From the IMG/VR virus record IMGVR_UViG_2585427708_000005: 64,000 bases of DNA; one strand, 5' to 3'. This DNA is from a virus. Its lineage: Duplodnaviria > Heunggongvirae > Uroviricota > Caudoviricetes. Position 1 is the stretch's first letter. Each line of letters opens with the position of its first letter. The notes under the pieces were generated by a model. It ran no database searches, had not been told where the DNA came from, and worked only from the letters and a program-made list of their open reading frames with translations. Of the stretch, positions 39,024-39,862 are shown piece by piece. The position numbers and the translations under genes were made by a program.

Positions 39024-39833
39024 ATGCAAGAAGAGAAACAACACTACCTCTACGTTCTGGTGCCAGAGAACGGAGATACTTTTAAAATCGGCATTTCATG
39101 TGGTCCATTGGCACGGTTTAAAGGGCTACAAGTGAGTCCCGATTTTGCGCTTTCACGGGTCTATCGTGGTACGCGTTTGGCAATGGTTAATCTTGAGCGG
39201 GCTTTACACGCAACCTTTTTCCCTTGGAATGCGCCGTGGGAGAAAAGCGCCGGTGGCGGGCATACTGAATGGTTTACACGAGAGTGTCTTGATAAGGTTT
39301 TGGCTCATATCGAATATCTAAATGATATGTGGGGAGGGATTCTCAAGCGCATTAAGTCGAATGATTTACTTCAGCGTCCAGTAGATGCTGCTTGCTCTTT
39401 CGAAAAAGAGCTGGATGTTACTTCTATCGTGACTTTCAAAGATGACGCAGGAATGAGGGACGTGGCTTATGTCTCCATATCTGGCTATGAACCGGACGCG
39501 ATCCACGCTCAATGTGAATTGCTGAAAGCAATGTTTATGCTTCGGACTAAATATCCCTGGGAGACAGGGCGGGTGTGCTTCCCTATGGAAGAGTTAACCG
39601 CCACCATTGATTCCCAGCTTTACCACGATAATCCAGAGAAGTTTTTTAGCCTTTTAGCCGGTAATGGGCTTAACTGTGTGTCCGGGCTGGGGCGAAGTAG
39701 AATCCAACATGCCTCGCTCTTCGGTCCCTTCTTTTACGATCGACACGGGTACTTTGAGGCTGAACTTCCGGCGCTTACGCGTGCTATAGATACTATCGAT
39801 TTCGAACGATTATTCGCTGCTCTTAGCAAATAA
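39024..39833 (+). CDS. GIY-YIG-like (T5orf172-type) domain protein
   Basis: 269 aa; N-terminal HYLYVLVPENGDTFKIGISCGPLARFKGLQ resembles the GIY-YIG/T5orf172 signature; own terminator downstream. Confidence 0.5.
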   Translation: MQEEKQHYLYVLVPENGDTFKIGISCGPLARFKGLQVSPDFALSRVYRGTRLAMVNLERALHATFFPWNAPWEKSAGGGHTEWFTRECLDKVLAHIEYLNDMWGGILKRIKSNDLLQRPVDAACSFEKELDVTSIVTFKDDAGMRDVAYVSISGYEPDAIHAQCELLKAMFMLRTKYPWETGRVCFPMEELTATIDSQLYHDNPEKFFSLLAGNGLNCVSGLGRSRIQHASLFGPFFYDRHGYFEAELPALTRAIDTIDFERLFAALSK

Positions 39834-39840
39834 CACTGAT

Positions 39841-39862
39841 GCCCCTGAACGGGGCTTTTTTG
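39841..39862 (+). terminator. Rho-independent terminator
   Basis: gcccctgaacggggc hairpin followed by a T6 run. Confidence 0.8.

Follow-up and report, generated by a model that had tools for sequence, protein, structure and literature searches.

The window analyzed here, a stretch of 64,000 nt from the IMG/VR virus record IMGVR_UViG_2585427708_000005 (Caudoviricetes), belongs to a P1-like phage-plasmid of the RCS47/SJ46/pO111_2 ("p0111") replicon type. Phage-plasmids of this kind are common in E. coli and Salmonella and are divided by replicon typing into IncY and p0111. They spread resistance genes, for example blaCTX-M and blaSHV (PMC9603915). An earlier note on the window, made from the sequence alone, had reported an open reading frame (ORF) of 269 amino acids (aa) between the replication and partition modules; it is present there (Table 1) and is called ORF269 in the following. 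From our analysis, ORF269 belongs to a complete replicon cassette of an alternative type that replaces the IncY oriR-repA-incA region of P1, and profile searches together with structure prediction support a T5orf172 (GIY-YIG-type) nuclease-like domain at its N-terminus.

The swapped cassette extends from ~37500/37650 to 39899 (2.25–2.4 kb) and consists of origin iterons, repA, incA-like iterons, ORF269 and a terminator. The window iterons, with the consensus TTGACTATACGCGA, occur in three groups, before repA, right after the repA stop codon and before ORF269, where the last inverted iteron ends 31 bp 5′ of the ATG. The ORF had been placed between the incA iterons and the parA promoter. This position holds, but the iterons are not those of P1 incA, as the replicon is of another type with a RepA 41% identical to that of P1. 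A terminator-like hairpin begins 8 bases past the ORF269 stop codon and sits between the gene and the par operon. Its shape is canonical, but the term "strong" used for it before does not fit a short 5-bp all-GC stem and a 50-nt fold of −12.1 kcal/mol (z = −1.6).

Table 1 Features of the replicon cassette and its borders in the window.
Feature	Position	Strand	Details
Left, fuzzy cassette edge	37500..37649	+	DnaA-box/GATC half of the plasmid origin; alignable to P1 oriR, ~24% diverged
Origin iterons	37665..37765	+	Five direct, spaced 21–22 bp, consensus TGTTGACTATACGCGA; from repeat search; counterpart of P1 incC with other sequence
repA	37847..38731	+	ORF of 294 aa, Rep3 family, 'p0111' type; repA is annotated here in RCS47 too
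Control (incA-like) iteron field	38732..38993	.	2 direct (38732–38771) and 4 inverted (38851–38993)
ORF269	39024..39833	+	269 aa, ATG start; T5orf172 / GIY-YIG-superfamily nuclease-like protein
N-terminal T5orf172 domain of ORF269	39024..39338	+	aa 1–105
C-terminal domain of ORF269	39474..39833	+	aa ~151–269; orphan, acidic; helix-helix-helix-hairpin layout
Intrinsic-terminator-like hairpin	39841..39862	+	GCCCC/GGGGC stem, 5-nt loop TGAAC, T6
Right, sharp cassette edge	39900..39947	+	98.9% identity to P1 resumes; par promoter/operator region directly after
par-promoter-like site	39919–39947	.	Downstream of ORF269
parA	40002–41198	.	Downstream of ORF269

An alignment of the repA-parA interval against P1, a check proposed with the earlier note, revealed that the ORF269-bearing cassette replaces that of P1 and that homology resumes at 39900. 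ParA, ParB and gp23 are 99.6–99.7% identical between the window and P1, in contrast to the 41% of RepA. The window segment 37650–39899 stands in place of positions 3007–4497 of the P1 locus (L002), comprising 1.49 kb of iterons-repA-incA and a 172-bp spacer. At the left edge, BLAST homology to P1 (NC_005856) stops at 37649, and we counted 36 differences per 150 bp (~76% identity) vs. ~1–5 per 100 bp further left. On the right, window position 39900 corresponds to L002 4498. This junction lies 37 bp past the terminator, and the −35 element annotated for Ppar (L002 4517) follows 19 bp further on. The first 96 bp beyond this junction contain 5 single nucleotide polymorphisms, followed by ~1 per 100 bp, a ~5-fold enrichment.

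The two replicons share their general layout of origin iterons, an autoregulated repA, control iterons and the par operon (P1 annotation of Lobocka et al. 2004, NC_005856). They differ in the sequence of RepA and in the iterons, those of P1 (GATGTGTGCTGGAGGGA) being unrelated to those of the window, and the place of the 810-bp ORF269 and its terminator is taken in P1 by an unrelated spacer of 172 bp. In line with the earlier note, which had matched the ORF to no P1 gene, the gene has no P1 counterpart: a tblastn search of ORF269 against NC_005856 gave no match, and neither blastn with a word size of 7 nor tblastn detected a remnant in the incA-Ppar spacer, which would have pointed to a loss of the gene in P1. 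The arrangement with ORF269 is found at 98–99% identity in RCS47, SJ46, JL22, phi456, vB_EcoM-Ro157c2YLVW and some records named 'P1'. The window's plasmid replicon is not that of P1, which corrects an earlier reading, and ORF269 is not a gene of the P1 backbone, nor does a simple insertion describe it. The alternative posed in the earlier note, a canonical backbone gene or a selfish/accessory nuclease insertion, fits in neither form as stated; the gene belongs to the alternative replicon cassette. We also did not find the ORF at this position in every P1-like genome, as would be expected of a conserved gene with a known role other than that of a nuclease; ~360 IncY-type elements in complete E. 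coli genomes match the P1 cassette, which has no such gene.

We searched ORF269 against domain and family collections. The Pfam T5orf172 profile (PF10544, GIY-YIG clan) matched aa 8–85 with 27.5 bits, covering profile positions 2–87 of 101, compared with a gathering cut-off of 20 bits. The MUG113 and Tox-URI2 profiles matched weakly, below their cut-offs. In PHROGs, an end-to-end match was obtained to phrog_2876 (E 5.6e-193), listed there with unknown function, and a weak one to phrog_681, annotated as 'endonuclease'. NCBIfam gave no match and PADLOC-DB 2.0 returned 0 families at E ≤ 1; with neither matching, an assignment to a known defence system was rejected.

In an alignment of 42 homologous sequences, G23, R31, E58, E82, W83 and F84 are invariant, and Y10, K21, D40, L61, H62, G79 and T81 are conserved to at least 90%. 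Across the four lineages of the family described below, the segments Y8-L-Y10, F20-K21-I-G23, R31, E58xxL61H62 and T81-E82-W83-F84 are invariant. Judged from the sequence, this Tyr / K-x-G / Arg / Glu-Trp-Phe pattern is that expected of a competent T5orf172 core. A single-sequence AlphaFold2 model was unusable, with a predicted local distance difference test score (pLDDT) of 40, and was replaced by a model based on the 42-sequence alignment. The latter reached a pLDDT of 75.6, with ~90 or more for most of the N-terminal domain, 65–86 for most of the C-terminal domain and below 50 for residues 215–235. The N-terminal domain is predicted to adopt an SLX1-like α/β fold of the GIY-YIG (URI) type, and matches in BFVD were phage T5orf172 proteins resembling those of homing endonuclease genes (HEGs) as well as ICP1 ORF88, published as gp88/Odn. 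Profile match, core residues and predicted fold therefore agree with the GIY-YIG/T5orf172-like signature proposed from the sequence before.

The C-terminal domain yielded no Pfam match and no homologue beyond the four-lineage family. It is acidic in all four lineages, with isoelectric points (pI) of 5.1–5.4; whole proteins and C-terminal domains together range from pI 5.1 to 5.8. Its best structural matches were WH1/winged-helix (WH) domains of Rep initiators, but these were weak, with non-significant Foldseek E-values of 0.8–6.5. The resemblance of the predicted domain to a Rep-initiator winged helix is by fold only, and for us it is a lead and no more. BLASTP of full-length ORFs and C-terminal domains against five RepA, ParA and ParB sets gave a best E-value of 0.64, and hhalign of the C-terminal domain profile against the RepA profile a probability of 0.2%. 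On the basis of these empty comparisons, covering RepA, ParA and ParB of all lineages, an Odn-like chimera was rejected at the level of sequence.

To describe the distribution of ORF269, we searched PLSDB by tblastn and identified 401 plasmids, all at least 90% identical; the whole cassette was present in 391 plasmids. In another ~110 records, the match was confined to the final 50 bp of the query at the junction homologous to P1; those among the matches listed were all of IncY type. Truncated or insertion sequence (IS)-interrupted copies excepted, PLSDB contained no p0111-type repA without ORF269. Among 5426 complete E. coli genomes, ORF269 was found in 412 (~7.6%) and the P1-type IncY repA-incA in 359 (~6.6%), and the ORF269-bearing cassette is present in about half of the P1-like phage-plasmids. 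The gene was absent from the eight IncY loci examined: P1, five IncY plasmid loci and two with a P7-type par, in which the repA-parA gap is just 400 bp. ORF269 is missing in IncY P1-type and present in p0111-type elements, and it is the whole replicon cassette that differs between them.

The family comprises only four lineages among 5.8 billion protein clusters. The window type has 1241 member sequences; the others are represented by P0004 (44% identity to ORF269), P0010 (27%; Salmonella enterica) and P0011 (29%; faeces metagenome). All three are encoded between repA and parA of P1-like elements (L003, L004 and L005), which carry three RepA types, and the incA-like iterons are kept in L003. 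None of these three lineages occurred in PLSDB, where the matches of the P0010 and P0011 types were cross-hits to the window type. A hairpin similar to the one in the window follows the homologue in L005; the hairpin scan detected none 3′ of the homologues in L003 and L004.

The comparison of L003 and L004 provided a second instance of cassette exchange. Their ParA (99.7%), ParB (98.2%) and gp23 (99.5%) are nearly identical, but RepA is only 40% and the ORF 28% identical, with breakpoints ~176 bp 5′ of repA and 63–84 bp past the ORF stop codon. Because the two differ in repA and the ORF on a near-identical backbone, the ORF is part of an exchangeable unit in two independent backbones. Moreover, the RepA of L004 is 83% identical to the IncY RepA of P1, and the IncY-like cassettes of L004 (with a homologue) and P1 (without one) are 76% identical. 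Such a gene can hence occur in an IncY-like cassette, of which E. coli P1 has the form lacking it.

More remote homologues of the N-terminal domain (35–42% identity over ~100 aa) have similar total length and unrelated C-termini, and lie in accessory regions of mobile elements. One of them has Mrr-cat, WYL/WCX and Hypoth_Ymh genes as neighbors, in a region resembling a defence island. Given these unrelated mobile-element contexts, an association of the wider family with rep/par genes was rejected. ORF269 is already annotated in databases, in RefSeq as 'GIY-YIG nuclease family protein', and papers mention an unknown gene; Venturini et al. reported two orfs between repA and parA of pSvP1 (PMC6906374).

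Selection on ORF269 is relaxed but present. The ratio of nonsynonymous to synonymous polymorphism (pN/pS), pooled over sampled alleles, was 0.40 for ORF269 (6 distinct alleles), 0.15 for upfA, 0.10 for gp23, 0.06 for parB, 0.02 for repA and 0.01 for parA. Between the window and L003, the ORF is 44% identical (64% in the N-terminal and 33% in the C-terminal domain), compared with 84% for RepA and 89% for ParA. Two 60-record samples of matching records contained 4–5 split, frameshifted or interrupted copies. In plasmid pPK8217-139kb, the gene is broken by an IS91-family insertion with a 6-bp duplication, and an E. albertii plasmid has a 2-nt deletion within it. In pO111_2 (NC_013370.1, 52496–53305), the reference plasmid and namesake of the 'p0111' replicon type, the gene is split, and RefSeq annotates the nuclease domain as an N-terminal fragment of 111 aa and the C-terminal part as an ORF of its own with 126 aa. 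These naturally disrupted alleles indicate that ORF269 is dispensable for plasmid maintenance. The gene is intact in most of >400 copies and over deep divergence. Its G+C content of 47.3% equals the window mean, and a recent foreign origin was rejected on this basis.

The type of cassette is not linked to its flanks. According to nearest-neighbour distances, RCS47 (p0111) is closest to P1 (IncY) in the right flank, whereas the IncY plasmid L014 is closest to p0111 plasmids there, with identical parB DNA. In the left flank, another IncY plasmid, L015, is closest to p0111 plasmids. This result suggests that the cassette was exchanged repeatedly, or that the flanks recombine freely.

Further variation was observed next to the cassette. 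Within upfB (35634–36479), the segment 36000–36300 of the window shows 42 differences per 300 bp to P1, vs. 1–4 per 100 bp on either side, and this hot spot coincides with a Ser/Gly-rich low-complexity stretch of UpfB. In three IncY plasmids (L011–L013, locus positions 4527–5358), a Gp49-family gene and a gene of 133 aa, a pair that looks like a toxin-antitoxin module, are found in place of upfA (window 37119–37511). The left neighbor of the replicon cassette is thus itself a variable slot. In two E. coli IncY plasmids (L022 and L023, locus positions 3501–6928), the IncY repA-incA is joined to a different par module with a ParA of 401 aa and a ParB of 321 aa, sizes as in L005, which we read as P7-type. 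The 172-bp incA-Ppar spacer is missing there, suggesting that this spacer goes with the P1-type par side and not with the replicon cassette.

Looking at possible expression signals, we detected no terminator between the repA stop codon and ORF269. A standard scan for sigma-70 promoters between both genes found none and a relaxed scan just 8-of-12 matches with poor −10 boxes; a sigma-70 promoter of its own was rejected on both scans. As a candidate for a weak ribosome-binding site, only the motif AGTGGT, 8–13 nt 5′ of the ATG, is conserved. The simplest inference from these signals is that ORF269 is co-transcribed with repA, by low-level read-through from the RepA-autoregulated promoter across the iterons. 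Control by the C1 repressor was rejected, since there is no C1 operator within 3.7 kb of ORF269. Elsewhere, 11 matches to the P1 C1 operator consensus ATTGCTCTAATAAATTT with ≤3 mismatches are scattered across window positions 366–53077, vs. 0.4 expected by chance, and include an overlapping inverted pair at 30744–30771. In another frame, an ORF of 101 aa (38830–39135, +) crosses the inverted iterons into the start of ORF269, and the L003 homologue P0004 was likewise called too long through the iterons (311 aa vs. a true length of ~270 aa). As the iteron sequence is open in this frame, both the additional ORF and the upstream extension are most likely artefacts.

An Rfam scan found no structured RNA between 30089 and 52795, including the interval around ORF269. 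On either side of it, the scan identified two C4 antisense RNA genes (Rfam RF01695) on the minus strand, at 102–291 (75.9 bits) and 52795–53000 (68.8 bits). The first adjoins an isrK-like sRNA at 214–291, the second has an a1/b1 target element at 52948–53000, which suggests two immunity-type antisense modules in one window. Moreover, four tRNA matches are clustered at 27825–30089 (−), three of them strong (64.7–69.9 bits) and one weak (41.9 bits).

What, then, might this gene do? We tentatively prefer to regard ORF269 as a T5orf172 nuclease gene derived from a homing endonuclease, which would have become a fixed passenger of the replicon cassette and would act in conflict or recombination between replicons, although we put the chances of this explanation a little short of even. 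The cassette would be swapped as a unit between near-identical P1 backbones via recombination in the conserved flanks, with the nuclease gene at its right-hand boundary. In the prophage-plasmid state, low amounts of the protein would be made, probably by read-through from the autoregulated repA promoter, and the terminator would shield the par operon. The N-terminal domain may cut or nick DNA, and the fast-evolving C-terminal domain may target it to replicon-related DNA or to a Rep-DNA complex. The nuclease could then damage a co-resident rival P1-type replicon, or provoke breaks that let the cassette convert its rival. The gain would go to the cassette, not to plasmid maintenance as such.

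Several points weigh against this explanation. Active homing classically shows itself in HEG-plus/HEG-minus pairs of otherwise identical DNA, but every p0111-type cassette has ORF269 and no such pair was found. Nor is there a sign of a sweep, as cassettes with the ORF and IncY cassettes lacking it occur at similar frequency in complete E. coli genomes (412 vs. 359 of 5426). The acidity of the protein and of its C-terminal domain (pI 5.1–5.8) is unusual for a sequence-specific DNA-binding module, and the Rep-like fold predicted for this domain is weakly supported. Plain homologous recombination of co-resident P1-like plasmids, with no nuclease involved, can give mosaic flanks too. Finally, the pN/pS of ORF269 is based on 6 distinct alleles only.

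If ORF269 does act on rival replicons or drives the conversion of cassettes, plasmids would possess their own counterpart of the phage-satellite Odn system, and both the swapping of replicon modules and an incompatibility-like exclusion between phage-plasmids would have a mechanism. If not, ORF269 is another uncharacterised T5orf172 gene already annotated in databases. To our knowledge, it has not been asked before why a nuclease gene always comes with the p0111 cassette.

A wider form of this idea, which we consider unlikely, is that each P1-like replicon cassette has its own 'replicon-warfare' T5orf172 nuclease, whose fast-evolving, Rep-initiator-like winged-helix domain is aimed at the origin, the iterons or the Rep-DNA complex of the rival cassette. 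This would be an Odn-like weapon encoded by the plasmid replicon itself, which might eliminate a co-resident competitor sharing the partition system or convert its replicon by break-induced recombination in the flanks. It would explain the repeated swaps of whole cassettes on near-identical backbones.

It is also conceivable, but rather improbable, that ORF269 is an accessory factor of replication or copy-number control, in which the Rep-WH1-like C-terminal domain pairs with RepA or iteron complexes (e.g., resolving or modulating handcuffing) and the T5orf172 domain binds or nicks DNA. Such a role would suit the strict synteny with repA and the iterons that is kept across four diverged lineages, the probable co-transcription with repA, the Rep-initiator WH1/WH domains as best structural matches of the modeled C-terminal domain, and its acidic character, which fits protein-protein contact more than DNA binding. 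However, the IncY replicon of P1 works without such a gene, and disrupted alleles occur in natural plasmids including the p0111 reference pO111_2. The gene is ~20 times less constrained than repA, and the ORF is only 44% identical where RepA is 84% identical (window vs. L003). The strict conservation of catalytic-type residues would not be needed for a pure binding role either.

We are likewise doubtful that ORF269 is a single-gene defence nuclease against phages or plasmids, similar to abortive infection, carried as cargo in the plasmid-maintenance region. P1-like elements do carry defence cargo, remote homologues of the N-terminal domain lie in accessory regions of mobile elements, one of them beside Mrr-cat, WYL/WCX and Hypoth_Ymh, and fast evolution with sporadic inactivation would be in line with such a function. 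But no PADLOC model matched, the repA-parA interval holds the ORF269 family or nothing and is therefore no cargo hotspot, and the type of the gene tracks the replicon cassette, not the host or the remaining backbone.

That ORF269 is the decaying relic of a once-mobile nuclease gene, drifting without function and kept only by its linkage to repA, appears very unlikely, because the raised pN/pS (0.40), the 4–5 disrupted copies in the two 60-record samples and the lack of a visible dedicated promoter are opposed by a pN/pS below 1, an intact frame in most of >400 copies, homologues that are full-length down to 27% identity with all core residues kept while neighboring DNA is ~70% identical, and a G+C content equal to the window average.

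Returning to the preferred explanation of ORF269 as a nuclease gene derived from a homing endonuclease, three known systems can be compared. GIY-YIG homing endonucleases of the I-TevI / Seg type are established to combine an N-terminal catalytic domain of ~100 aa, a linker and a C-terminal targeting domain in a total of ~250–270 aa, an architecture resembling that of ORF269, and are likewise free-standing genes between conserved genes. ORF269 differs in belonging to the T5orf172 branch (PF10544), with F20 where the YIG motif has Tyr, and in its acidic C-terminal domain that lacks zinc-finger, minor-groove-helix or HTH modules.

The free-standing T5orf172 HEGs of phages (ICP1, T5-like and others) sit next to essential genes and at exchange boundaries (Barth, Dunham & Seed 2023, PMC10448857). 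ORF269 has the same nuclease domain family according to Pfam and predicted structure, is also free-standing and adjoins an essential replication gene, lies exactly at a modular-exchange boundary between near-identical genomes, evolves fast and is sporadically inactivated. In contrast, its nuclease domain is N-terminal and not C-terminal as in the ICP1 HEGs (PMC8096241), and the Pfam search detected no DNA-binding domain of the CapR, DUF723, DUF4397 or Bro-N type. Its host is the plasmid replicon cassette of a temperate phage-plasmid and not a lytic phage. No HEG-less version of this cassette was found, and homing by ORF269 is hypothetical.

The third system is Odn (ICP1 gp88), a T5orf172 nuclease with a RepA-like domain. 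Odn cleaves a rival replicon at its iterons and exerts selection for the swapping of replicon modules (Barth et al. 2021, PMC8263062; see also PMC10448857). The DNA-binding domain of Odn is 42% identical to the RepA_N of its target, whereas ORF269 resembles no RepA in sequence; the attacking phage encodes Odn, ORF269 lies inside the replicon cassette, and the order of the domains is opposite. Yet in both, a T5orf172 domain is joined to a second domain, which in ORF269 may resemble an initiator winged helix, according to a weak match of the predicted fold, and both are linked to the swapping of replicon modules, initiator together with iterons, between related elements.

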